In this document: positions 2,786 through 18,047 of the stretch, in pieces
How positions within the stretch are numbered: the first letter of the stretch is position 1
How the letters are laid out: every line of letters starts with the position of its first letter
Origin: Acidimicrobiia bacterium
GTDB lineage: Bacteria; Actinomycetota; Acidimicrobiia; Spongiisociales; Spongiisociaceae
Assembly: GCA_041576165.1 (NCBI GenBank)
Contig: JBFGLM010000067.1
Span: 1 to 22,311 of the forward strand
DNA: 22,311 bases
Direction: 5' to 3'
Notes under the pieces: generated by a model
Told to the model about the DNA's origin: nothing
Databases searched by the model: none
The model's input: only the letters and a program-made list of their open reading frames with translations
Translations under genes and position numbers: made by a program

Positions 2786-2827
2786 CCGGGCAGGGTTCAC
2801 GTCGAGGAGGCCCGCAGGAGGCCGAGC

Positions 2828-2852
2828 GTGGGCGCGACCTGGATGCGCCCAC
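2828..2852. terminator. GC-rich hairpin after the LamG-like gene
   Basis: gtgggcgc-N9-gcgcccac inverted repeat between convergent genes; no U-tract. Confidence 0.45.
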
Positions 2853-2869
2853 CGGGGGGAGCTCCGGCA

Positions 2870-2916
2870 GGTCGTTGCCGTCCTGTTTTCCCGATTCGCC
2901 TGACCCGTCGCCTGCC
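2870..2916 (+). repeat. Direct repeat copy 2 (orphan copy of the CPBP C-terminus)
   Basis: ggtcgttgccgtcctgttttcccgattcgcctgacccgtcgcctgcc; reads VVAVLFSRFA* versus CPBP VVAVLLPRFT*. Confidence 0.85.
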
Positions 2917-3573
2917 TCAGACGTAGATGTTGATGTCGGCTCCATCCATGATCGACATGAAGGTGAGGTACTCGACGACCGGCATGTCGTCGAAGATGAA
3001 GTCTTCCGGCTTCACCTTGAACGGTTCGAGCGAGCCGCCGCACACGTAGAACCTCGCCCCCAGCTCGTGCAGCTGGCTGAGTTTTTCCTGGGCGGGAATG
3101 TGACCGGCTTTGGTCATGCCGGCTTGGGCAAAGCGGGTGAACGGGCGCGCCCAGCCTGGCATCTTCGGCCGGAAGCCTCGGGTCACCACCCGCACAGCCG
3201 GTCCCTGGAAGTAGATATGTACGTCAATGCCCTCGAGGGCGGCGCCCAGTGCAAACCCGAGCGGCGACAACAAGTCCAGCAACCCCGCCTGGGAGATGAC
3301 CATCGCGAGTTTCGAATCGCGGGCGATCGGGTGGCCTTTCTCGATGAGAAAGCGGTGGCCGGGCGCGGTTCCTTCCGACGCCAGCAGCGCGTGCCCCACC
3401 GAGCGACACCATGTCGCAATGTCGGACTCGAACGGCTCGAATTCGTCGGTGAGGACCTCCAGCACCTCACCCGCGGACATCTCCTCGAGCGCCTCAGCCG
3501 CTTCGAATACCACGAACGTCGTGATGGTCTTGCCGCGGCCGTCGAGCGACCGATCGGCAGTGATCGTTGTCAT
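2917..3573 (-). CDS. TusA/SirA-like domain fused to a DsrE-family domain
   Basis: N-terminal LDGRG...GEVLEVLTD...DIATWC..GH...FLIEK (TusA fold). C-terminal VHIYFQGPAV...GARFYVCGGS...TF...AD (DsrE/DsrF). RBS GGAGG. Confidence 0.8.
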   Translation of the reverse strand: MTTITADRSLDGRGKTITTFVVFEAAEALEEMSAGEVLEVLTDEFEPFESDIATWCRSVGHALLASEGTAPGHRFLIEKGHPIARDSKLAMVISQAGLLDLLSPLGFALGAALEGIDVHIYFQGPAVRVVTRGFRPKMPGWARPFTRFAQAGMTKAGHIPAQEKLSQLHELGARFYVCGGSLEPFKVKPEDFIFDDMPVVEYLTFMSIMDGADINIYV

Positions 3574-3676
3574 CTTCCACCTCCGCCATTACGGCTGGAG
3601 CACGCAGCCCGGAGGGGCGGGAACACCGCTCCCGGTGGGCCTCGCCCCGAGCCCGCGTGCCTGATCGAACCATCTA

Positions 3677-4689: not shown

Positions 4690-5136
4690 CTAGTCGGGAA
4701 GGTTGCTTTCGATCAAGAGCCGGAAACGTTTGAGGTTCGCTCGCCAGATCGCCGCCAATATCGGCCGGGCCACCCGCTCACCGATAGGCCCGGCGAAATA
4801 CCAGGGGAAGTACAGCTGCTCGTGCCAGGTGAACCGGGTCTTGACCGGGCCTACCTCTTCCAACCGGAATTCGCCCGTGCCGGTGAACAGGCCCCGGTGG
4901 CTCACGGTGATTCGGCGCGGCTCGTCGATGTCGATTACCTCGATCACGTCGACGGTGCGCAAAGGTCCGACCCGGGTCTCGACTGCCATCGTTGTCCCCA
5001 CGCCCGAGCGCTCGTCCGTCAGGAACTCAATCGAAGCAGCATCGGCCATCCATTCTGTGTGGGACGCGAAGTCGGCCGCGTATTCCCATACCTCTTGGAT
5101 CGGGGCGGCGATTTCCGTTGAGACGACGACGGCCAT
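4690..5136 (-). CDS. SRPBCC (START/polyketide cyclase-like) family protein
   Basis: I.AP..EVW...AD....EW, GVGT, G.GEFRL..., TRFTWHE, NLKRF..L pattern. Confidence 0.85.
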   Translation of the reverse strand: MAVVVSTEIAAPIQEVWEYAADFASHTEWMADAASIEFLTDERSGVGTTMAVETRVGPLRTVDVIEVIDIDEPRRITVSHRGLFTGTGEFRLEEVGPVKTRFTWHEQLYFPWYFAGPIGERVARPILAAIWRANLKRFRLLIESNLPD

Positions 5137-5228
5137 GGACCGACGTTAAACGAGTTGTCGCCTTCGATGGCGCCAAGTGGCCGGGCGCGACTATCGGTTC
5201 CGATCGGGTCACCGGTACTGTTGGGCTG

Positions 5229-6596
5229 ATGCGTCGTTTTCTCTTCACGCTGCTCAGCCTTGTCTTGGTTGCGTCCGCTTGCTCCTCGGGCGACGATTCG
5301 GCACCAACAACCGTGCCCGTCGATGACCTGTCGAACGCAGTGGGGGACCTGACTACATCGACCGTGGCGGCGCCGGAACCTGCTGCGACGTCAACGACGC
5401 AGGATCCGGACTCCGGGATCAGCATCACGACCGAGCCGGCTGGCGGAGTGGAAGTGATCGGGACCTCACTGTCGAGATTCGATGAGCGGTCGATCGACCT
5501 AGAGGTGGGCCGGCCCGCCCCATCCTTCTCCGGCCCCGGCTTCGAGGGGAACCTCATCGAGGTCACGCCCGGAACCCGGCCCATGGTGGTCCTGTTTCTG
5601 GCGCACTGGTGTCCCCATTGTCAGGCCGAGGTCCCCGAGTTGCAGGCCTTTATCGGTGAGAACGGTCTTCCGGAAGGCGTCGACTTCGTGGCCGTGGCCA
5701 CCGCCAACGATGCCAGCCGAGACAACTATCCGGCTGATGAGTGGCTGGAAAGGGAAAACTGGACCCCGGTCACCATCATGGACGACGATGCGTCAAGCAT
5801 CGGCGAGGCATTCGGGCTGAGCGCGTTTCCGTACTACGTGTTCCTAGATGCCGAGGGTTTGGTAGGCGGCCGTTTCACTGGGGGCCAGCCGCCCGAGGTC
5901 ATCGCGTCGGGCATGAGGACCCTGGCCGGCGGTTTCAGCGCAGCGCCCGCAGAGACGACAACTACGACCGCAGCAGCGGCTCCGGAGGCGTCAGGTATCC
6001 CGTCGTCGCAGCTCGAGGCGTTTCGAGCCCAGCCCACTGCGTGTGGAAGTTCGCTCCCGGCTCTGCCTACGAGCGAGCAGTACGTCGAGCCAGGTGATGC
6101 CGGGCTCGCGGGCCCGTCCCAGCTCGTCCTGACCACGTCGTGCGGCGAACTCACCATCGAGCTGGATCTAGAACGCGCCCCGATCACCGTGAATGCCATG
6201 GCTTTTTTGGCTGAGGAAGGGTACTTCGACGGCACTGCCTGCCATCGGTACATCAGCGGGTTTGTTCTGCAATGCGGTGATCCGAGCGCCAGCGGCAGGT
6301 CGGGGCCGGGTTACTTCCTGCCTGACGAGTTCCCAGAAACAGGATTCGTCTATGAGCGTGGAGTCGTGGCGATGGCCAACGCCGGCCCCGGCACCGGCGG
6401 GAGCCAATTCTTCATCGTGACCGGCGACGCGAGCCCGCTTCCCAACCAGTTCACTGTGATCGGCACGGTGGAGCTGTCTGAGGAGTTCCTGGCTTCGCTC
6501 GATTCCCTGCCGCTGGGTGTTGGCTCCTTTGGCGAGACCTCACGACCGCTCGAAACCGTGTACATCGAAGAGGCGGTCGTGTCCCGCACGGGGTGA
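5229..6596 (+). CDS. Lipoprotein fusing a TlpA-like thioredoxin (WCPHC) with a cyclophilin-type peptidyl-prolyl isomerase
   Basis: Lipobox ASA-C; FLAHWCPHCQAEVP plus AFPYYVFLD (cis-Pro); Thr/Ala linker; APITVN, YFDGTACHR...QCGDP...GPGY, MANAGPGTGGSQFFI. Start 5229 is 7 nt after TACTGT. Confidence 0.85.
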   Translation: MRRFLFTLLSLVLVASACSSGDDSAPTTVPVDDLSNAVGDLTTSTVAAPEPAATSTTQDPDSGISITTEPAGGVEVIGTSLSRFDERSIDLEVGRPAPSFSGPGFEGNLIEVTPGTRPMVVLFLAHWCPHCQAEVPELQAFIGENGLPEGVDFVAVATANDASRDNYPADEWLERENWTPVTIMDDDASSIGEAFGLSAFPYYVFLDAEGLVGGRFTGGQPPEVIASGMRTLAGGFSAAPAETTTTTAAAAPEASGIPSSQLEAFRAQPTACGSSLPALPTSEQYVEPGDAGLAGPSQLVLTTSCGELTIELDLERAPITVNAMAFLAEEGYFDGTACHRYISGFVLQCGDPSASGRSGPGYFLPDEFPETGFVYERGVVAMANAGPGTGGSQFFIVTGDASPLPNQFTVIGTVELSEEFLASLDSLPLGVGSFGETSRPLETVYIEEAVVSRTG

Positions 6597-7451: not shown

Positions 7452-8630
7452 ATGTATTACGTGGACCATGCCGCAACGACGCCGATGCGCCCAGGCGTGT
7501 GGGAGTCGATGGAGCCGTTCGTCGCCGAGGCGTTCGGCAACTCATCTGGCAGCCATTCGGTATCGCGTCGCGCCAAGAACGCCTTGGAGGAGGCCCGGGA
7601 ACGGGCAGCCGTCGTCCTGGGAGCCAAGCCGCTCGAGATTGTGTTCACCGGAGGCGGCACCGAAGCGGACAATCTGGCAGTCAAGGGGTCGGCGCTGGCG
7701 TCCGGACGGAAGGGCAGGGTGATCACATCGCCGACGGAGCATGAGGCGGTGCTCGAGTCGGCCGCCTTTTTGAAAACGGTCGGGTGCGGCGTTGCCGAGA
7801 TCGAAGTCGACGGCTTCGGCCGGGCGGATCCCGAGCGCGTCGCAGCATTGGTCGATGATGCCACTGCGGTCGTCTCGATCATGACTGCCAACAACGAAAC
7901 CGGAGTGATGCAGCCGGTCGCTTCTGTCGCCCGCTCGGTCAAGGCAGCGCATTCCGAGGTCGCCGTCCACACCGACGCCGTCCAGGCCTTCGCCTCGGTC
8001 GACCTCGACGTCGATCAGCTGGGCGTGGATCTGCTGGCACTGGCCGGCCACAAGTTCGGCGGTCCCAAAGGCGTTGGCTTGCTGTATGTCCGGAACGGGA
8101 CGCCGTTGGAGGCCGTCGTGCACGGCGGCGGGCAGGAGCTGGGCCGCCGGTCGGGCACCCACAACGTCATGGGAGCGGTTGGATTGGTGACAGCGATGGA
8201 ACTGGCAGCCGAGGACCGACCCAGCTTTCGCACGCGGGTCGCCCGCGAGCGTGACGCGTTCGAGCTCCGCCTCACCGAGCTGCTGGGTGACGTTGTGTCC
8301 ACCGTGGGCGCAGCGGAGCGACTGGTGCAGCACAGCCACGTGCGGATCCCGGGCGTGCGGAATGAGACGCTGCTCGTCCGGCTGGATGCGGCCGGGGTAG
8401 CAGCGTCAGCGGCGTCCGCCTGTCAGTCGGGCGCGGCCACGGTTTCCCACGTCCTCGAGGCCATGGGCTACACGCCGGACGAGGCGCGAGAGTGCCTGCG
8501 GTTCTCGTTCGGCTGGACGACCCGGCCGGGGGAAGGGGCGGCAGTGGCCGAGCTGGTGGCAGCTGAGGTGGCAGAGCTGCGGGAGGGCCGTCGGTCTGCC
8601 GGCTTGGGCGCATCCGGGGATCCGGCATGA
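7452..8630 (+). CDS. iscS: Cysteine desulfurase (IscS/NifS group I)
   Basis: YVDHAATT, FTGGGTEADN, ANNETG, HTDAVQ, GHKFGGPKG (PLP Lys), GGGQE..RRSGT, SAASAC (catalytic Cys); ATGA overlap with mnmA. Confidence 0.93.
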   Translation: MYYVDHAATTPMRPGVWESMEPFVAEAFGNSSGSHSVSRRAKNALEEARERAAVVLGAKPLEIVFTGGGTEADNLAVKGSALASGRKGRVITSPTEHEAVLESAAFLKTVGCGVAEIEVDGFGRADPERVAALVDDATAVVSIMTANNETGVMQPVASVARSVKAAHSEVAVHTDAVQAFASVDLDVDQLGVDLLALAGHKFGGPKGVGLLYVRNGTPLEAVVHGGGQELGRRSGTHNVMGAVGLVTAMELAAEDRPSFRTRVARERDAFELRLTELLGDVVSTVGAAERLVQHSHVRIPGVRNETLLVRLDAAGVAASAASACQSGAATVSHVLEAMGYTPDEARECLRFSFGWTTRPGEGAAVAELVAAEVAELREGRRSAGLGASGDPA

Positions 8631-9691
8631 GCAGCGTGCTGGTAGCGATGTCTGGGGGAGTCGATTCATCGGTCGCTGCCGCCCTCATGAAGGAACAGGG
8701 CCACAATGTGATTGGGGTGACGCTGAAGCTGTGGGAGGGCCCGGGCGGTGCTGCCCCGACCGCCGGGTGTTGCACAGTCTCCGACGCCGAAGACGCTCGC
8801 CGGGTGGCGGCGCAGCTCGACATCCCCTACTACGTGTTGGATCACACAGACGTCTTCATGGACGGCGTCGTTGACCGGTTCATCGACGACTACGTGAGCG
8901 GGATGACCCCTAACCCATGCATCGAATGTAACCGGACGGTGAAGTTCACCGAACTCATGACCCGGGCCGCTGATTTCGCGTGCCAGGTCGTCGTCACCGG
9001 CCACTACGCCCGGGTCCGCCAGGAGCGGGAATCGTGGCGACTGTTCCGCGGAGTCGACCGCGCCAAGGACCAGTCGTACGTGTTGAGCATGCTGGGCCAG
9101 GCCCAACTCGGCCGGATCTGGTTCCCGGTTGGCGAGCTGACGAAGGCCGAAGTGCGCCGAATCGCCGCCGGTCTCGATCTACGCACCGCGGCCAAATCCG
9201 AAAGCCAAGACATCTGTTTCGTCGGCGATCGCGACTACCGCGAGTTTCTGGCCGAGCATGCTCCCGACCTCGGTACGCCGGGGCCGATCGTGGACCGCGA
9301 ACGCAGGGTGGTGGGCACGCATAGCGGGGTCACCAACTTCACGGTCGGGCAGCGACGGGGACTCGGTATTGCGTTTGGGGAGCCCCGTTTTGTGACCGGG
9401 ATCGATCCGGCCACGGCCACGATCACCATCGGACGCCGCTCCGACCTCGAGGTGGAGCGGTTGGAGCTACGCGATGTGACCTGGGTAGCGCGCCCGGTGG
9501 CGGAGGGGGAACCGGTCACGGTCCAGTATCGGGCCCACGGAGCCGCAGCCGCCGCTCGGGTCCGATTTGATGGATCTGGTGTCACGGTCAGCTTCGAACA
9601 GCCGCAACTGGCGGTTGCGCCGGGCCAGACCGCCGCCATCTACGTCGGAGACGAGGTGCTGGGCGGGGGCATCATCACCGGAAGCGCCTAG
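8627..9691 (+). CDS. mnmA: tRNA 2-thiouridine(34) synthase MnmA
   Basis: AMSGGVDSSV PP-loop, TPNPCIECN, TGHYAR, KDQSY, SQDICF, TVGQRRGLG, APGQ. Confidence 0.97.
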   Translation: MSSVLVAMSGGVDSSVAAALMKEQGHNVIGVTLKLWEGPGGAAPTAGCCTVSDAEDARRVAAQLDIPYYVLDHTDVFMDGVVDRFIDDYVSGMTPNPCIECNRTVKFTELMTRAADFACQVVVTGHYARVRQERESWRLFRGVDRAKDQSYVLSMLGQAQLGRIWFPVGELTKAEVRRIAAGLDLRTAAKSESQDICFVGDRDYREFLAEHAPDLGTPGPIVDRERRVVGTHSGVTNFTVGQRRGLGIAFGEPRFVTGIDPATATITIGRRSDLEVERLELRDVTWVARPVAEGEPVTVQYRAHGAAAAARVRFDGSGVTVSFEQPQLAVAPGQTAAIYVGDEVLGGGIITGSA

Positions 9692-9737
9692 AGGTTTGAC
9701 CGGCTCCCATCGTGGGTACGCTGGCGCAAAACCTCCC

Positions 9738-9766
9738 TTGACAGCTGCACGTCTTATCACTATATC
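9738..9766 (+). promoter_or_regulatory. Housekeeping-sigma promoter of hsp20
   Basis: TTGACA (9738-9743)-17 nt-TATATC (9761-9766) in an AT-rich patch; the -10 is imperfect. Confidence 0.6.
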
Positions 9767-9785
9767 TGAGTGTATATGACTCAGA
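9765..9785. promoter_or_regulatory. HAIR-like operator (HspR-type inverted repeat)
   Basis: TCTGAGT-gtatatg-ACTCAGA versus canonical CTTGAGT-N7-ACTCAAG; overlaps the predicted transcription start upstream of a small heat-shock gene. Confidence 0.75.
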
Positions 9786-9846
9786 AAAGTGTAGCTGGCA
9801 GTCACCTGCTACGTATCTGGATGGTCACAGAGAAAGGAGGGCACGG

Positions 9847-10266
9847 ATGATGCGTGTTGCTAACCCGCTGGCAGAGATGGATCGTCTCACGGCTTCCCTT
9901 TTCGGAGGCATGAGCGGCGCATTGATGCCCATGGACCTGTACGAGAGTGACGGAACCTTCATCGCTCGTTTCGACCTGCCCGGGATTGACCCGGACTCGA
10001 TCGAGCTCACCGTTGAGAATCAGATGCTGACCGTGACCGTCGAGCGGCCGGGCGAGGACACTGAAGGAGCCAACTGGTTGGTTCGCGAGCGGCCCGCCGG
10101 CAAGCACAGCCGTCAGCTGCGGCTGGGCTCGAGCCTCGACGGCGGCGCGATCGAAGCCAACTACGACAACGGCGTCTTGACCGTGATCATCCCGGTTCGG
10201 GAAGAGGCCAAGCCGCATCGGGTATCGATCAAGTCCAGCCAGAAAGAACCGGCGCTGACCGGCTGA
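9847..10266 (+). CDS. Hsp20/alpha-crystallin small heat shock protein
   Basis: MPMDLY, FDLPGIDP, LTVTVER, RERP.G..SRQL.LG, IEANYDNGVLTVIIP; RBS AGAAAGGAGG. Confidence 0.95.
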   Translation: MMRVANPLAEMDRLTASLFGGMSGALMPMDLYESDGTFIARFDLPGIDPDSIELTVENQMLTVTVERPGEDTEGANWLVRERPAGKHSRQLRLGSSLDGGAIEANYDNGVLTVIIPVREEAKPHRVSIKSSQKEPALTG

Positions 10267-10326
10267 GCGGTTGGCGGCGTACTGCCGCCTAGCCCCGTGC
10301 CGTCCCCGAGGACCGGGCTCAGTTTG
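10263..10326 (+). terminator. Branched stem-loop after hsp20 (possible terminator or stabiliser)
   Basis: ctgagc...gctcag closes two inner hairpins (ggcggc/gccgcc and gtcc/ggac), followed by TTTG. Confidence 0.4.
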
Positions 10327-10371
10327 TGCGCTGGCCCTCTCGGGGGCGGCACGACGTGAGAGGTTTCTCCG

Positions 10372-11484
<1,113 letters not shown>

Positions 11485-11523
11485 CAAGGAACGAGCGAAA
11501 CGGAATCAGAGGAGATAACGCAG

Positions 11524-12702
11524 ATGCGACGACTCAGTACTCGCAGCGTCGTTTTTGTGTTGGCGCTGCTCATGGCCCTGTCCGTTCCCGCCTGGGCGAC
11601 AGCCCAGGTGGCAGACGCACCGGTCCAGGCATCCGATGTAGAGGTGTCCACGCCATTCGTCGGTGTCACGGTCAAGCCCGGCGAGACAGCGAGCTTCGAC
11701 TTGGACATCCTCGGGCCCGTGGACGAGCGGGTGAGCGTGAAGATCGAAGGTCTCCCAGAAGGATGGGCGGCCGACCTTCGCGGCGGCGGCTTCACCGTCG
11801 AAGAGATCCTGATCCCGCCCGCGGGCATGGTGGAGACCGAACTCAAGATAGATGTTCCGGTGGCGGCCGCTGAAGGTATCTACCAGGCAGTGGTGATGGC
11901 AGACGGGAACCGCATGACCGACCGGCTCGACCTAGCCGTACGGGTGGCGGCCGATGCCGGCGGCGGCGTTGCGCTGACCGCGGAATTCCCCGAATTGCGC
12001 GGTCCCGCAGATGTGACCTTCACCTACAACCTGGAGCTCGCCAACGAGACGTCGGAGGAGATCCAGTTCGGGCTCCAGACCCAGGGTCCTCCCGGCTGGA
12101 TCATCGAAGCCCGCCCCGCAGGTCAAACTCGTGCGTCCACTGTGACGGTGGCCGGCGGCGAAACCGAGCGACTGACCGTGGAGGTCGATCCGCCGGACTT
12201 CGCGACCGCCGGGACTTACCCAGTTGCGGTGCAGGCTGCCGGTAGCGGCCAGACGGCTGGCGCCGAGCTGGCTGTTGAGATCACTGGGAACTTCGACATG
12301 GCCCTGTTCACGGCGGATGAGCGCCTCAATGCCACCGTAGAAGCCGGCCAACCCAGCGAGCTGCCGCTGGTGGTGGCCAACCGTGGTACCGCGCCGTTGA
12401 CTGATCTGAGCTTCGGAGCCACCCCGCCCTCCGGATGGGAGGTGACGTTCGCTCCGGAATCGGTCGACCGGCTCGAACCCGGTTCGACGGCCGAGGTGGT
12501 GGCCACGATCACCCCATCTGAGGAAGCGATTGCGGGTGACTACAGCATGACGTTGCGAGCCAACACGGCCGAAGTGAACCAGCAGGTCGACATCCGGACG
12601 ACCGTGGAAACCTCAACGCTGTGGGGCCTATTCGGCGTTGGCATCATCCTGGCTGCGCTGGTCGCACTGGTGCTGGTCTTCCGCCGCTTCGGCCGGAGGT
12701 GA
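11524..12702 (+). CDS. NEW3/COG1470-type repeated Ig-like surface protein with a C-terminal membrane anchor
   Basis: Signal peptide; three repeats (GLPEGW, GPPGW, PPSGWEVTF.P); N.GTAPL; AIAGDY; C-terminal TM helix then RRFGRR; RBS GAGGAG. Confidence 0.85.
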   Translation: MRRLSTRSVVFVLALLMALSVPAWATAQVADAPVQASDVEVSTPFVGVTVKPGETASFDLDILGPVDERVSVKIEGLPEGWAADLRGGGFTVEEILIPPAGMVETELKIDVPVAAAEGIYQAVVMADGNRMTDRLDLAVRVAADAGGGVALTAEFPELRGPADVTFTYNLELANETSEEIQFGLQTQGPPGWIIEARPAGQTRASTVTVAGGETERLTVEVDPPDFATAGTYPVAVQAAGSGQTAGAELAVEITGNFDMALFTADERLNATVEAGQPSELPLVVANRGTAPLTDLSFGATPPSGWEVTFAPESVDRLEPGSTAEVVATITPSEEAIAGDYSMTLRANTAEVNQQVDIRTTVETSTLWGLFGVGIILAALVALVLVFRRFGRR

Positions 12703-12706
12703 ACCC

Positions 12707-13672
12707 ATGCCGGACACTGCAACGACATTGATCGAAGCCGCCGGCCTCACCAAGCGCTACGGCGACGTGGAGGCCGTCCGCGACCTCGATCTGACCGTCC
12801 GGGCCGGAGAGGTGTTCGGCCTCCTTGGCCCGAACGGCGCGGGCAAGACGACCACGATCCTCATGCTGCTGGGGCTCAGCGAGCCCTCCGCCGGCGTGGT
12901 GCGGGTATGTGGACTTGATCCCGCCCGAGACCCGCTGGCGGTCAAGCGTCAGGTCGGCTACCTGCCCGACGCGGTCGGGTTCTACGAGCAACTCACCGGC
13001 CGCCAGAATCTGCGGTACACCGCCGAGCTGAATGAGATCCCTCCAAGCGAAGTGGCGGAGCGGATCGAATGGACACTGGAACAGGTAGGCCTGACGGCCG
13101 ATGCCGACCGCCTGGTGGGCGAGTACTCCCGGGGTATGCGACAGCGGCTGGGTATCGCCGATGTCCTGATCAAAGATCCGGCAGTGGTGATCTTGGACGA
13201 GCCGACCTCTGCCATCGACCCTGAGGGTGTTGCGGCCATGCAGCGGCTGATCGTCCGGCTCGCCCGCGACGAAGGCCGGGCCGTGTTGCTGTCCAGCCAC
13301 CTGCTGCATCAGATGCAGCGGATCTGCGACCGGGTGGCGATCTTCGTCGGCGGCCAGGTGATCGCGCTAGGAAGCCCGTTTGAGCTCGGACAGGCGCTGT
13401 CCAACGGCCGGACCGTCCACGAGATCACGGCCGATGCCCAGCACCACGAGGTCATGGCCGCGCTGGCCAACGGCTTTGGGGACAGGGTCGTCGATGTGGA
13501 GCAGATGATGCCCGGAAGGTGGCGGGTCAGCCTGCCGGCAGACGAAAGCCGGCGGCTCGTACGGGTGCTGGTCGACGGGGATGTCGAGTTGCGCGAGGTG
13601 CGCGACCTGGGTTCGGACCTGGATCAGGTGTATCACCGCTACTTCGACGAGCGTCAGGGGGTGGCGGTATGA
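12707..13672 (+). CDS. ABC transporter ATP-binding protein (CcmA/ABC-2 type)
   Basis: Walker A GPNGAGKT, signature YSRGMRQR, Walker B ILDEP, H-loop SSHLL; RBS GGAGGT before ATG 12707. Confidence 0.95.
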   Translation: MPDTATTLIEAAGLTKRYGDVEAVRDLDLTVRAGEVFGLLGPNGAGKTTTILMLLGLSEPSAGVVRVCGLDPARDPLAVKRQVGYLPDAVGFYEQLTGRQNLRYTAELNEIPPSEVAERIEWTLEQVGLTADADRLVGEYSRGMRQRLGIADVLIKDPAVVILDEPTSAIDPEGVAAMQRLIVRLARDEGRAVLLSSHLLHQMQRICDRVAIFVGGQVIALGSPFELGQALSNGRTVHEITADAQHHEVMAALANGFGDRVVDVEQMMPGRWRVSLPADESRRLVRVLVDGDVELREVRDLGSDLDQVYHRYFDERQGVAV

Positions 13673-14649
13673 CCGTCACCGGACTGCGCACCGGCTGGAC
13701 CAGGCGCAAGCCGGGCTGGGCCGTCATCGCCCGCAAGGAGTTTGCCGACCACATCCTGTCCATTCGCTTCGTGGCGCTGTTGATCTTGCTCAGCCTGGTG
13801 GCGCTGTCGACCGTGTATACGGCGGCGGGCGCGCTGCGCGACGTTGCCCAGAACGCGTCCGGTTCGGCCGGCTTGTTCCTGCGGTTGTTCACCGTGCAGG
13901 CCGAGCCGATCCCCCTGTCGTTCATGACGTTCCTGGGGTTCCTGGCTCCGATTCTCGGTATAGCGTTCGGCTTCGACGCCATCAACAACGAGCGGGCCCA
14001 GGGCACCCTGTCCAGGCTGGTCAGCCAGCCGATCCACCGCGACGACGTCATCAACGGAAAGGTCGTAGCCGGCCTGGGTGTGGTCGGGCTGCTCGCAGCC
14101 ATCATCACCTCGATCGTGGCCGGACTCGGGATCGTGTTGCTGGGCATCACTCCCGAGGCCGGAGAGGTGGCAAGAATCGCCGTGTGGATGATCGCGCTGG
14201 TCGCCTTCGTGGGCGTGTGGTTGGCGTTTGCCGTGCTGTGCTCGACCGCAATGCGCCGGCCTTCGACTGCGGCGCTGGTCGCCATCGGGGTGTGGCTGGT
14301 ACTGACGCTCTTCGGCGGGTTGCTGGCGCAGGTGACGGCCGATGCGTTGGCGCCGGTGGATGCCGGCGACCCAGTCAGCATCCTGGACAACGCCCGCCTT
14401 GAACAGTCCCTGTCCCGCGTGTCGCCGATCGTGCTGTACGAAGAGGCAGCGACGGCGCTGCTCAATCCAGAGACTCGGACCCTGGGCTTGGTCACATTCG
14501 GCCAGATCGACCGGGCTCTGGTGTCCGACCTGAGTCTCCAGCAGAGCCTGCTCCTCGTGTGGCCGCAACTCGTCGGCTTGATCGCTACGACCATCGTGAT
14601 CTTCGCGATCGCCTACGTGGTGTTCATGCGGCAGGAAGTCCGCGCCTGA
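13669..14649 (+). CDS. ABC-2 type permease (NosY-like)
   Basis: IARKEF.D, GFDAINNERAQGTL.RL.SQPI.R..VI.GK, about 6 TM helices, C-terminal FMRQEVRA; ATGA overlap with the ATPase. Confidence 0.9.
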   Translation: MTVTGLRTGWTRRKPGWAVIARKEFADHILSIRFVALLILLSLVALSTVYTAAGALRDVAQNASGSAGLFLRLFTVQAEPIPLSFMTFLGFLAPILGIAFGFDAINNERAQGTLSRLVSQPIHRDDVINGKVVAGLGVVGLLAAIITSIVAGLGIVLLGITPEAGEVARIAVWMIALVAFVGVWLAFAVLCSTAMRRPSTAALVAIGVWLVLTLFGGLLAQVTADALAPVDAGDPVSILDNARLEQSLSRVSPIVLYEEAATALLNPETRTLGLVTFGQIDRALVSDLSLQQSLLLVWPQLVGLIATTIVIFAIAYVVFMRQEVRA

Positions 14650-14665
14650 AACGGTGGTGGAGGAA

Positions 14666-14698
14666 GCAGCGGGCCGTCCCGCGTGGGCGGCCCGCTGC
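14666..14698. terminator. Bidirectional hairpin terminator between convergent genes
   Basis: gcagcgggccgtcc-cgcgt-gggcggcccgctgc, 14-bp stem with one G-U pair. Confidence 0.75.
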
Positions 14699-14700
14699 CG

Positions 14701-15786
14701 TCAGTTCGCCGTTACCGGTTCCGCATCTTCGGTCACGTTGTTAGTGAACGTGGTCGCGTCGTTATCGATTGCGACCGATCCGTAGAAGCCCGTCCCGGCG
14801 AAGAATATGTTGTCACCGACTGTTACGTCCGTCATGGGGTAGTCGGTCCCGGCCACGATCGAGAAAAGCGTGTACGCGCCACCGGCCATGGCGTTCTCCG
14901 ACACCGTCACTGCGGCGATGTCGCCCAAATCCGGTTTGATGATGATGGCAGCGTTTGCTCCGTCCACGCTGGAATCGATGAAGTTGCAGCGGATGCTCAA
15001 CCCGAAGTTGCCTCCTTGCAACTGCAATCCGTCGGCGTGGCGAGCTGCGCCGGACGACAGCTTGGCTCCGGTGGCCAGGTCGTGGATCCAGTTGGCCTCG
15101 ATCAAGTGCCCGGTCCCGCCGGGTTTGAAGCCGTCCTCGCCTCCCGAGATGTCGTTGTTGCGGATGGTCCAATTGCTGGACTCGGTCCGCAAGAAGATCG
15201 TCGCGGCCTCCCCGCCCCGGAATCGGTTGTATTCGAGCAGGCCGCCATCACCGTGTCCGTCGAGCACGTACCAACTGTCCGCGGTGAGTTCCCGGTTGAT
15301 CTCGGAGTCCCGCATCGTGAGCGTGGCCCCCTCCTCCATGAAGATCCAGGCATTGTCGGCCGCGACCCGTTCGATCACGACCGACGCGCCGCGCTCAACG
15401 CGAATCATCACGTCGCCCGTGATATCGAAGTCAGTGAGCTGCGCGCCGTCCGCGAGGATCACCTCGCGCTCGCGGAGGCGAACCCCATCCGGGGCGTTCT
15501 CCGATCGCAGAAGCCCGCCGGTGCCGGGCTGCATCCGGGGCCCGGCATTGGCCGGGATAGCGTCAATCGGCATGCCACATACTCGAGGCATCGGCCGCGC
15601 CGGATTTGCCGCCGAGGTGGGTGCCGTACGTTGTTCGACTTCCACAAACGTCGCCACCGCCGCGGTCGAGCTCGCTGCCGGGGCCCGGGCGGAGGTTGTA
15701 GCCGTGGGGGCCGCCTCCGGTTCGGCCTGGGCGCACGCAGCGACGACGACCAGCCACAACACCAGCGTCCGGGTGAGGTTCCGCAA
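14701..15786 (-). CDS. Lipoprotein with right-handed parallel beta-helix domain
   Basis: Lipobox VAA-C after a hydrophobic stretch; Ala/Thr/Pro linker; Asn-ladder repeats (IRNNDISGGEDG, IEANWIHD, HADGLQ..GG, VTVSENAMAGGAY, VTVGDNIF). Start uncertain: TTG 15786 chosen, ORF open to 15990. Confidence 0.7.
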   Translation of the reverse strand: MRNLTRTLVLWLVVVAACAQAEPEAAPTATTSARAPAASSTAAVATFVEVEQRTAPTSAANPARPMPRVCGMPIDAIPANAGPRMQPGTGGLLRSENAPDGVRLREREVILADGAQLTDFDITGDVMIRVERGASVVIERVAADNAWIFMEEGATLTMRDSEINRELTADSWYVLDGHGDGGLLEYNRFRGGEAATIFLRTESSNWTIRNNDISGGEDGFKPGGTGHLIEANWIHDLATGAKLSSGAARHADGLQLQGGNFGLSIRCNFIDSSVDGANAAIIIKPDLGDIAAVTVSENAMAGGAYTLFSIVAGTDYPMTDVTVGDNIFFAGTGFYGSVAIDNDATTFTNNVTEDAEPVTAN

Positions 15787-15869
15787 TCGTCTGGCGCGCT
15801 GGCGTGGATGGTCCGGATGGGTGCGAGAGGGCCGAAGCTCTCCCGATCGCTGTTCGAAGGTTCTGCTGA

Positions 15870-18047
<2,178 letters not shown>

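Follow-up and report, generated by a model that had tools for sequence, protein, structure and literature searches.

The window, a 22,311-nucleotide stretch of DNA from an Acidimicrobiia bacterium, carries five co-oriented genes between a promoter-like region and a terminal hairpin. The last three, encoding a NEW3 protein, an ABC ATPase and a permease, are hereafter called the triad. The features of the locus are as follows.

9738-9766, plus strand: promoter-like TTGACA-17 nt-TATATC, by direct reading, within the 155-nt gap after mnmA
9765-9785, plus strand: HAIR-like palindrome TCTGAGT-N7-ACTCAGA, by direct reading, with the core CTGAG-N9-CTCAG
9777-9804, plus strand: composite word TGACTCAG..TAGCT..AGTCA, common to the dnaK promoter of the same genome
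9847-10266, plus strand: hsp20, 139 aa, alpha-crystallin family (PF00011)
10273-10353, plus strand: two stem-loops 3′ of hsp20 (10273-10289 and 10296-10353), from folding against shuffles
10372-11484, plus strand: htrA (Trypsin_2 and PDZ_2), for a serine protease that has one PDZ domain and is probably a lipoprotein
11524-12702, plus strand: NEW3 gene (NPCBM_assoc/NEW3 and FixG_C in Pfam)
12707-13672, plus strand: ABC ATPase gene (ABC_tran), its ATG start lying 23 codons within a longer TTG ORF
13669-14649, plus strand: permease gene (ABC2_membrane_2, PF12679), its start overlapping the ATPase stop by 4 nt
14666-14698, no strand assigned: 14-bp GC-rich hairpin, flanked by the permease gene and the beta-helix gene that converges on it

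The ORF listing and translations reproduced exactly the intergenic gaps of 105, 39, 4 and -4 nt given in a preliminary description of this DNA, and Pfam searches bore out the identities it had assigned, namely Hsp20, HtrA, NEW3, ABC ATPase and NosY-like permease. The hairpin it had placed at the end of the locus was also present, in the interval that separates the permease stop codon from that of the convergent gene (z -3.1; 2/200 shuffles as stable). This hairpin carries no U tract, and the terminator scan made no call there. The convergent beta-helix gene (14701-15990) found no match in any of 80 triad loci.

The hsp20 gene, one of two in the host genome, encodes a protein with an alpha-crystallin domain at residues 33-128 (PF00011, 1.8e-18). 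Upstream of it, TTGACA (9738-9743) and TATATC (9761-9766), separated by a 17-nt spacer, form a sigma-70-like promoter. A strict promoter scan of 9500-16100 made no call, because the scan demands T as the last base of the second hexamer. The promoter is overlapped by a perfect 7-N7-7 inverted repeat, of which CTGAGT-N7-ACTCAG has a single exact copy in the 5.1-Mb genome. This palindrome matches 10/14 positions of the Streptomyces HAIR consensus. We found CTGAG-N9-CTCAA at the same gene in loci L007 and L008 (11 to 12/14 against the Streptomyces consensus), while L118 retains the left half only. TTGACA followed by the CTGAGT word lies 5′ of the orthologous hsp20 in L007, L008, L117, L118 and L119, and the core [CT]TGAG-N9-CTCA[AG] has only 3 copies in 1.12 Mb of triad loci.

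On C3 of the same genome, the genes dnaK-grpE-dnaJ-dnaJ precede an ORF of 141 aa whose N-terminus is MerR-like; this is hspR, which closes the dnaK operon as is typical of the HspR/HAIR regulon of Actinomycetota (the dnaK operon, clpB, Mycobacterium acr2). The dnaK promoter contains half-site words, with no copy of a half-site pair at the spacing of the window palindrome. The composite word has two occurrences in the genome, in the window and upstream of dnaK, its pattern having been derived post hoc from these two sites. The inverted repeat of the window has the HAIR core spacing and overlaps the hsp20 promoter, whereas its half-sites are CTGAG/CTCAG rather than TTGAG/CTCAA. The N9 core spacing is that of the published bifidobacterial HAIR, TTGAGysw-N6-CTCAA. 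HspR control of an Hsp20-family gene is established, in that HspR represses acr2 in mycobacteria (PMC8223512). With an hspR-ending dnaK operon in the genome and a palindrome that is unique there, the HspR-type operator proposed earlier at hsp20 is plausible.

A strong fold follows hsp20: the 121-nt stretch 3′ of the gene folds at -70.7 kcal/mol (z -4.2; 0/200 shuffles as stable). A stem-loop had been expected here at 10263-10326; its existence was confirmed but its position was not, the actual hairpins being a short one at 10273-10289 and a long one at 10296-10353. No Rfam family matched either of them. The long hairpin ends 18 nt before the htrA ATG, and the distance from hairpin to next start is 18 to 28 nt in the window, L007, L008 and L027. 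Strong hairpins were found at the matching position in L007, L008, L118 and L027. The htrA-NEW3 interval contained no terminator-like fold in any of the three loci examined, namely the window, L007 and L008. Because the stem-loop stops 18 nt short of the htrA start, htrA probably depends on read-through. The spacing of the genes and the position of the hairpin suggest that all five are most likely transcribed as a single unit, driven by heat shock and expressed at two levels. To our knowledge, HspR-type control of a protease and ABC module 3′ of hsp20 has no prior description.

Alternatively, the genes might be mere neighbours. On this account, hsp20 would be a monocistronic HspR target ending at the hairpin, htrA and the triad would be transcribed from a weak promoter in or just after hsp20, and the triad would be an ordinary lipid, glycan or drug ABC-2 exporter that takes no part in heat stress or in the quality control of proteins. 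The strong hairpins 3′ of hsp20 in 5/7 folded hsp20-bearing loci are consistent with it, and given the U tract of one of them, that of L027, the hairpin could be a full terminator. However, with 18 to 28 nt between hairpin and next start in four loci, there is no space for a downstream promoter.

We then consider the triad across genomes. The ATPase gene came next after NEW3 in 75/75 loci with room for it, the permease gene was next in line in 67/67 loci with room, and among further Chloroflexota-class loci the ATPase gene followed NEW3 in 29/29 with room. These results show that the NEW3-ATPase-permease triad is an autonomous, strictly conserved module. It had been called uncharacterised, and our literature search likewise found nothing on it.

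The linkage to htrA is of another kind. The HtrA protein carries Trypsin_2 (9.7e-35) and PDZ_2 (2.6e-12) domains in Pfam, and its translation reads LLLPAC near the N-terminus and places the His, Asp and Ser in TNFHV, DLALL and GNSGGP. It thus shares the trypsin-like domain, the His-Asp-Ser triad, at least one PDZ domain and the export signals of HtrA/DegP envelope proteases such as the mycobacterial HtrA-like proteins. Unlike that family, it has a single PDZ domain, lies under every NCBIfam equivalog cut-off (262 bits against 416 for TIGR02037) and is encoded in a pair with hsp20, a pairing found in six genomes. The preliminary description proposed an integrated five-gene system, in which the triad would extract damaged membrane or surface proteins and pass them to HtrA while Hsp20 holds clients on the cytoplasmic side. 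The tight spacing in the window, the identical five-gene order in L007 and L008, and the predicted location of both HtrA and the NEW3 ectodomain outside the membrane agree with this proposal. However, htrA lies directly 5′ of the triad in only 2/72 other loci (the same L007 and L008), the hsp20-htrA pair occurs without an adjoining triad in three genomes (L117, L118, L119), and NEW3 lies 3′ of htrA in 1/30 loci around the best HtrA relatives within the taxonomic order, that one being the window's own. Moreover, hundreds of genomes hold the triad without an adjacent protease. The expectation that the triad would be linked to htrA elsewhere was therefore largely refuted by the first two of these results, on which a dedicated partnership of HtrA and the triad is unsupported, and we consider the integrated system improbable. 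Judged from gene order, hsp20-htrA appears to be a pair conserved in its own right, which came to lie beside the triad as a lineage-specific event.

The NEW3 protein matched NPCBM_assoc/NEW3 (4.2e-31) over two stretches, and FixG_C. It comprises a signal peptide, three Ig-like domains, a C-terminal membrane helix and a conserved FRRFGRR tail, and its AlphaFold2 model (mean pLDDT 91.9) has a helix at 365-389; matches of the model in the PDB were to generic tandem-Ig proteins only. The NEW3 protein is a single-pass membrane protein with three Ig-like domains outside the cell. No invariant residue in the alignments is Cys, His or Met. The gene has one copy in the host genome and is single-copy per genome where checked. 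Just N-terminal of the membrane helix lies a conserved TV.TS motif, and beyond the helix a basic tail, an arrangement that may resemble the tripartite shape of C-terminal sorting signals.

Such a likeness would fit a rather different reading, in which NEW3 is the cargo or product: an adhesin with Ig-like domains displayed on the surface, or a layer protein associated with the wall, which the ABC-2 pair would insert, display or turn over. Some look-alike clusters are indeed named S-layer domain proteins. However, the surveyed triad loci contain no conserved sortase- or peptidase-like gene in the module, and the near-invariant cytoplasmic tail, the 75/75 linkage to the ATPase gene and the single copy fit a stable subunit better. 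Structure prediction of the NEW3-permease complex placed NEW3 on the permease with a score of 0.51 against 0.00 for the best control, a mark reached by 116/157 solved complexes and 2/215 mismatched pairs, with only 18/157 solved complexes passing at scores of 0.60 or below. The runs agreed in at least 94% of contacts, with partner pLDDT of at least 81. This prediction weakly suggests that NEW3 is a permease-bound subunit, and it too argues against NEW3 as cargo, a reading that we regard as very doubtful.

The ATPase (ABC_tran, 2.2e-29) has a readable Walker A, signature, Walker B and H-loop, and its best NCBIfam matches are exporter ATPases of the DrrA/GldA/NodI type, which serve ABC-2 systems. 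The permease matched PF12679 at 5.2e-38, with NosY (7o0y_D, E 2.4e-7) as its nearest solved chain. The two proteins thus combine the intact ATPase motifs and PF12679 permease of NosFY-type ABC-2 systems, and neither reaches the curated cut-off of any named subfamily in NCBIfam. A DrrAB-type drug exporter was rejected, as the ATPase reached 230 bits against a cut-off of 312 for the DrrA subfamily (TIGR01188). The GldA-GldF-GldG system of Bacteroidota gliding motility resembles the triad in its ABC-2 ATPase, PF12679-type permease and large extracytoplasmic accessory protein, but the triad hosts are Actinomycetota and Chloroflexota, the ATPase (TIGR03522, GldA: 3.3e-54, 184 bits, cut-off 403) and permease (TIGR03518, GldF: 4.4e-6, 27 bits, cut-off 288) are far under the cut-offs, and the NEW3 accessory protein found no GldG match among Pfam and NCBIfam profiles; this candidate was rejected as well.

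The triad also resembles NosDF2Y2, which serves nitrous-oxide reductase assembly and is built of the NosF ATPase, the NosY ABC-2 permease and NosD. Each module has three genes, one for the ATPase, one for a PF12679 permease and one for an extracytoplasmic partner, and PMC13685413 describes an ATP cycle of NosDFY that alters the conformation of the outer partner, with transmembrane transport not seen. The partner of the window is a membrane-anchored tandem-Ig NEW3 protein, whereas that of NosDFY is the periplasmic beta-helix NosD. NosDFY proper was rejected on this ground, the adjoining beta-helix gene not being conserved at triads; neither nosZ nor nosL was found within the window. Our reading is that the triad is an ABC-2 machine akin to NosDFY but with a new outer subunit, and that in this locus it has been placed under a heat-shock promoter.

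The upstream neighbours were counted in 72 loci, each with at least 600 nt upstream of the triad. Intact hsp20 lies directly 5′ of the triad in 5/72 (L007, L008, L017, L027, L078), which fall at three places on the NEW3 tree, and bpa lies directly 3′ of the permease gene in 8 loci of one clade; related loci are non-independent, and the hsp20 adjacencies may represent just two events and those of bpa one or two. When all six-frame ORFs in 1.12 Mb were searched with an Hsp20 profile, the only additional copy was that of L056, located 3.1 kb 3′ of the triad; L007 and L008 carry bpa 2.5 kb downstream. In L078 the order is hsp20-hspR-NEW3 behind a 12/14 HAIR match, the HspR-like ORF matching the 141-aa ORF of C3 at 8e-14. 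In L012, the sequence 5′ of NEW3 can be aligned to the promoter that precedes hsp20 in L017. Mycobacterial Bpa is described as a proteasome activator that delivers HspR to the proteasome, thereby removing HspR (PMC8223512). By our estimate, about 0.1 hsp20-triad adjacencies are expected by chance, given that each of the four genomes in which hsp20 was counted has 2 copies. Thus, hsp20, hspR and bpa stand at the triad more often than chance, far above that figure.

This recurrence and the homology of the L012 region to an hsp20 promoter argue against the genes being mere neighbours. In favour of that account, the best ATPase matches are DrrA, GldA and NodI exporters, and the triad's neighbours vary between loci, most being unrelated (PNP and PabB, MscL and PBP1a, cytidine deaminase, redoxin and others). 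No hsp20 was found within 1.5 kb in more than 60/72 triad loci and in 29/29 other Chloroflexota loci, and the HAIR-like core was absent 5′ of every NEW3 gene lacking hsp20 in the 1.12 Mb searched, indicating that the triad is not generally HspR-controlled. We consider mere neighbourhood unlikely, though the least so of the alternatives. The stress link proposed in the preliminary description thus stands in part, as heat-shock genes recur at the triad in different lineages but most triads have unrelated neighbours. Such recurrence suggests that the machine contributes to upkeep of the cell envelope under heat or proteotoxic stress.

Taken together, we tentatively favour, at a probability of roughly 45%, a heat-shock-driven unit comprising a NosY-type machine with a NEW3 subunit, next to which htrA is a local juxtaposition, with a role in the envelope under stress. 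In this model, the sigma-70-like promoter overlapped by the HspR-type palindrome would drive hsp20, and the stem-loop behind the gene may attenuate transcription or stabilise the hsp20 3′ end while not fully halting the polymerase. HtrA and the triad would then be made from the same promoter at a lower level. The NEW3 protein would be bound to the permease as a subunit, and, by analogy with NosDF2Y2, cytoplasmic ATP hydrolysis might reshape or shift the outer Ig stalk; as an alternative output, a lipid- or glycan-like substrate might be expelled past it. The machine may aid envelope upkeep under heat or proteotoxic stress.

A bolder proposal, which we hold to be a long shot, is that the triad performs ATP-powered quality control outside the membrane. 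The Ig stalk would act on damaged exported or membrane proteins, or on wall polymers, by gripping, unfolding or dislodging them, the machine would be wired to the HspR-Bpa circuit, and HtrA, joined to it in the lineage of the window, would dispose of the released material. If true, cytoplasmic ATP would drive extracytoplasmic quality control in bacteria whose extracytoplasmic space lacks ATP.

The window comprises the entire 22.3-kb contig C67, one of 161 in a 5.1-Mb genome bin, and carries five plus-strand genes between mnmA and a convergent beta-helix gene. The preliminary description had given intergenic gaps of 105, 39, 4 and -4 nt for the five genes, which match our ORF coordinates exactly.

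Features of the five-gene region
8627-9691: mnmA, upstream flank of the five genes
9738-9743: TTGACA of a promoter-like element, followed by a 17-nt spacer and TATATC, within the 155-nt gap before hsp20
9765-9785: perfect palindrome TCTGAGT-N7-ACTCAGA, after TATATC
9847-10266, plus strand: hsp20 (Pfam HSP20, 1.8e-18)
10273-10289 and 10296-10353: two hairpins downstream of hsp20 (z -4.2; 0 of 200 shuffles as stable)
10372-11484, plus strand: htrA (Pfam Trypsin_2 plus one PDZ)
11524-12702, plus strand: NEW3 protein gene (Pfam NPCBM_assoc in two stretches, plus FixG_C)
12707-13672, plus strand: ABC ATPase gene (Pfam ABC_tran, 2.2e-29)
13669-14649, plus strand: ABC-2 permease gene (PF12679, 5.2e-38)
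14701-15990, minus strand: convergent gene for a probable exported right-handed beta-helix protein (PF13229, 4.3e-6)

HtrA has a lipobox-like signal (LLLPAC) at its N-terminus, and its His, Asp and Ser motifs are readable in the translation. No named NCBIfam subfamily was matched above its curated cut-off, and a PADLOC search for defence systems returned only generic trypsin and ABC matches. The closest solved relative of the permease is NosY (7o0y_D, E 2.4e-7) of NosDFY, the ABC complex for nitrous-oxide reductase assembly. NosD, the partner of NosY, is a beta-helix protein like the convergent gene product; this likeness is probably a coincidence, because no relative of the gene was found in any of the 80 triad loci. 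A 534-aa ORF at 4992-6596 (plus strand), 3 kb upstream of the cluster, fuses a thioredoxin-like Redoxin/AhpC domain to a cyclophilin-type prolyl isomerase domain, and its product may be an exported folding catalyst.

We found that the triad of NEW3 protein, ATPase and permease stands alone as a module. A one-genome-per-species scan identified 295 relatives of the NEW3 protein, and the best 80 of the 295 loci were analysed. Within these best 80, the ATPase gene followed NEW3 in 75 of the 75 loci with room for it, and the permease gene came next in 67 of 67. In the Chloroflexota class that contains locus L078, 99 of 301 sampled genomes encoded the NEW3 protein, and NEW3 was followed by the ATPase in all 29 loci with room. 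In the window's own class, Acidimicrobiia, the protein was present in 38 of 401 sampled genomes, one of which (G254) is flagged as unpublished. Twelve loci of one clade were flanked by purine-nucleoside-phosphorylase-like and PabB-like genes, those in Chloroflexia by MscL and PBP1a, and others by cytidine deaminase, redoxin, Lgt and more. Ten loci (L018, L019, L022, L025, L029, L034, L039, L072, L075 and L080) are labelled 'uncultured Acidobacteriota', yet they stand among Acidimicrobiia on the NEW3 tree, with very short branches; these labels may be wrong.

An alignment of 66 NEW3 relatives showed an N-terminal signal peptide whose A-Q cleavage region is conserved, repeated P.GW and AGDY motifs, and a C-terminus in which a conserved TV.TS is followed by a hydrophobic helix and a nearly invariant FRR(F/Y)GRR tail; no Cys, His or Met occurred among its invariant positions. 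In the AlphaFold2 model (mean pLDDT 91.9, pTM 0.66), three Ig-like sandwiches cover approximately residues 40-141, 149-253 and 259-362, and residues 365-389 form a helix. Foldseek with this model retrieved only generic tandem-Ig proteins (ciliary, integrin and pilin chains among them), and the only PDB match of the sequence profile was a weak one to the NEW3 domain of a GH20 enzyme. Complex prediction for the permease with mature NEW3 scored 0.51 against 0.00 for the best control. Among solved complexes, 116 of 157 reached the mark, and among mismatched pairs 2 of 215 did; only 18 of the 157 solved complexes passed at scores of 0.60 or lower. Contact agreement among runs was at least 94% and partner pLDDT at least 81. 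The prediction weakly supports a position of NEW3 on the permease and, together with the strict gene linkage, leads us to infer that the NEW3 protein is a transporter subunit.

The preliminary description had tentatively placed HtrA and the triad in one envelope proteostasis system. This part did not hold: htrA is not a conserved partner, being found ahead of the triad in only 2 of 72 other loci with at least 600 nt upstream (L007 and L008), and the hsp20-htrA pair also occurs with no adjoining triad. Therefore, what looks like a five-gene "system" has been put together locally from two or three separate units. Using the window's HtrA as query against 151 genomes of the order (E <=1e-70), we identified matches in 27 genomes at 30 loci; two of these genomes, G705 (L138) and G709 (L133), are flagged as unpublished. 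The hsp20 gene was immediately ahead of htrA in four of the 30 loci (the window's, L117, L118 and L119), and NEW3 lay downstream of htrA in the window's own locus only (1/30). These observations describe hsp20-htrA as a conserved pair in its own right, which adjoins the triad in three genomes. The L119 genome has the pair with no triad at that locus; about 290 nt past htrA, an ORF at 2827-3654 (plus strand) of L119 encodes a DnaJ J-domain together with a CXXCXGXG zinc-finger domain. By predicted gene content, the pair there is part of a small chaperone cluster. An htrA-NEW3 adjacency across a contig break was considered for genome G279, in which htrA is 90 nt away from a contig end and NEW3 (L006) is 243 nt away from the start of another contig. 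It was ruled out, as those 243 nt hold the end of a different ORF with no HtrA match.

In the window's own family, no NEW3 relative was found in five sampled genomes and no HtrA relative in 18, and the best relatives of both proteins belong to other families within the order. At 5.1 Mb the bin exceeds the 2.3-4.1 Mb of its kin, and it has an estimated contamination of 7.5% and two copies of the proteasome activator gene bpa. C67 may derive from an organism other than the one named for the bin; alternatively, the genes may have arrived by transfer.

We further surveyed the triad loci for heat-shock genes. An intact hsp20 lay immediately upstream of NEW3 in 5 of 72 loci (L007, L008, L017, L027 and L078), and an Hsp20 profile run on all six-frame ORFs in 1.12 Mb of loci added one copy, 3.1 kb downstream in L056. 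The hsp20-adjacent loci fall at three places of the NEW3 tree, which was built by a quick method with SH-aLRT support only: the window's 14-row clade, L027 and the Chloroflexota locus L078. L027 comes from a genome flagged as unpublished (G402), on which three observations rest: the adjacency of hsp20 and NEW3 in L027, the hairpin with a U tract there, and the finding of two hsp20 genes in G402. Without unpublished genomes there are adjacencies in 4 of 71 loci at two tree places, and the conclusions stand. By our estimate, about 0.1 such adjacencies would be expected by chance in roughly 100 loci, with two hsp20 copies in each of the four genomes checked. Because related loci are not independent, the adjacencies may represent only two or three events. 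The order in L078 is hsp20-hspR-NEW3, hspR being the heat-shock repressor gene, behind a 12-of-14 match to HAIR, the HspR operator. In eight loci, all of one clade, bpa directly follows the permease gene; in L007 and L008 it is found 2.5 kb downstream, and in the window's genome it is on contigs other than C67. In mycobacteria, HspR is delivered to the proteasome by Bpa (PMC8223512). In L012, the sequence upstream of NEW3 can be aligned to the promoter and leader of hsp20 in L017.

The proposed heat-shock link of the triad stands in part: hsp20, hspR and bpa recur, but more than 60 of the 72 triad loci have no hsp20 neighbour, and none of the 29 other Chloroflexota triad loci had hsp20 within 1.5 kb. 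The HAIR-like core was seen at three sites in the 1.12 Mb, and no NEW3 gene lacking hsp20 had it upstream. Five loci (L013, L014, L016, L023 and L028) have ORFs of 17-24 codons directly upstream of NEW3, with good ribosome-binding sites and Hsp20-like starts (MLRF.., ..DPF.., ..ERLD). With an Hsp20 N-terminus profile, three of the five ranked in the top 40 of 27,046 six-frame segments, at scores of 4.6 to 6.0 bits and E-values of 15 to 40, a hint that these ORFs may be remnants of deleted hsp20 genes.

Two other upstream elements were observed. In two Acidimicrobiia clades (L018, L020, L022, L024, L025, L029, L034, L037 and L038; L049, L055, L058, L061, L064 and L071-L076), an AT-rich motif in GC-rich DNA, (G/C)TTTA(T/C), 12-15 nt and GGG(T/C), lies about 60-110 nt upstream of NEW3, its spacer differing by 3 nt between the clades. 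The motif is similar to the GTTT..GGGTA promoters recognised by stress sigma factors of the SigB/SigF type. In three loci (L014, L023 and L028), a conserved CCTCTCTC, located some 10-90 nt ahead of NEW3, pairs by eye with the ribosome-binding region GAGAGAGAGG across an inner hairpin, a pairing that could hide the NEW3 ribosome-binding site in the manner of a thermometer or attenuator.

The palindrome before the window's hsp20 agrees at 10 of 14 positions with the Streptomyces HAIR consensus. The exact CTGAGT-N7-ACTCAG occurs once in the genome, and the same genome encodes the regulator, in dnaK-grpE-dnaJ-dnaJ-hspR. The published bifidobacterial HAIR consensus has N9 between pentamers, a spacing equal to that of the palindrome core; its half-sites are TTGAG/CTCAA, whereas those of the window are CTGAG/CTCAG. 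The words CTGAG, TGACTCAG, TAGCT and AGTCA are common to the dnaK and hsp20 promoters of the window's genome. As a composite pattern, defined post hoc from these two promoters, they occur at these two genome sites only. Orthologous hsp20 genes have CTGAG-N9-CTCAA in L007 and L008, ACTCA-N4-TGAGT in L117 and L119, and the left half only in L118. The Hsp20-family gene acr2 of mycobacteria is under HspR control (PMC8223512). The operator had been called HAIR-like; the core spacing and the presence of hspR agree with this, but the half-sites deviate and the dnaK promoter has no palindrome of the same spacing. Altogether, an HspR-type operator at the window's hsp20 is a plausible prediction. A promoter and terminator scan of 9500-16100 called no promoters and one terminator-like site, inside the permease gene, which is fewer than in shuffles.

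Only 18 nt separate the end of the second hairpin after hsp20 from the htrA ATG, and no start codon lies further upstream in that frame. Strong hairpins were identified at the same place in L007 and L008 (ending 19 nt before htrA), in L027 (with a U tract, ending 28 nt before the NEW3 start) and after hsp20 in L118, and not in L017 or L119. So little room is left downstream that transcription of the next gene must either pass through the hairpin or start at a promoter ahead of it. A full stop of transcription at the hairpin is conceivable; from fold and position we infer attenuation or 3'-end stabilisation, which would give high hsp20 and lower downstream expression. The htrA-NEW3 junction showed no terminator-like fold in the window, L007 or L008. 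Rfam at gathering thresholds gave no match in the whole window, and at permissive E-values only chance-level matches in 9650-10450, with no ROSE-type thermometer and no riboswitch.

NosY-type ABC-2 modules with an outer partner are common in genomes, and NosDFY is, to our knowledge, almost the only one that is understood. We place the triad among these NosY-type ABC-2 modules, with the NEW3 protein as a putative outer subunit of a new kind. Our literature search, which mostly excluded subscription journals, found no paper on the triad, in agreement with the earlier remark that it has no established substrate. For NosDF2Y2, PMC13685413 describes that ATP binding and hydrolysis alter the state of the periplasmic partner, with no solute transport seen. 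By analogy, the triad would most likely couple ATP hydrolysis to movement of its outer Ig stalk, or else expel a lipid- or glycan-like substrate past the stalk. In the window's lineage, the triad and HtrA appear to have been set behind a heat-shock promoter. The negative result for HtrA is also useful, separating the triad from the local five-gene assembly. That hsp20, hspR and bpa recur beside the triad offers a concrete and testable first handle on its role, in heat or envelope stress. If the machine does use cytoplasmic ATP to act on proteins or polymers outside the membrane, this would bear on how bacteria that lack a periplasmic energy source maintain their exported proteome.
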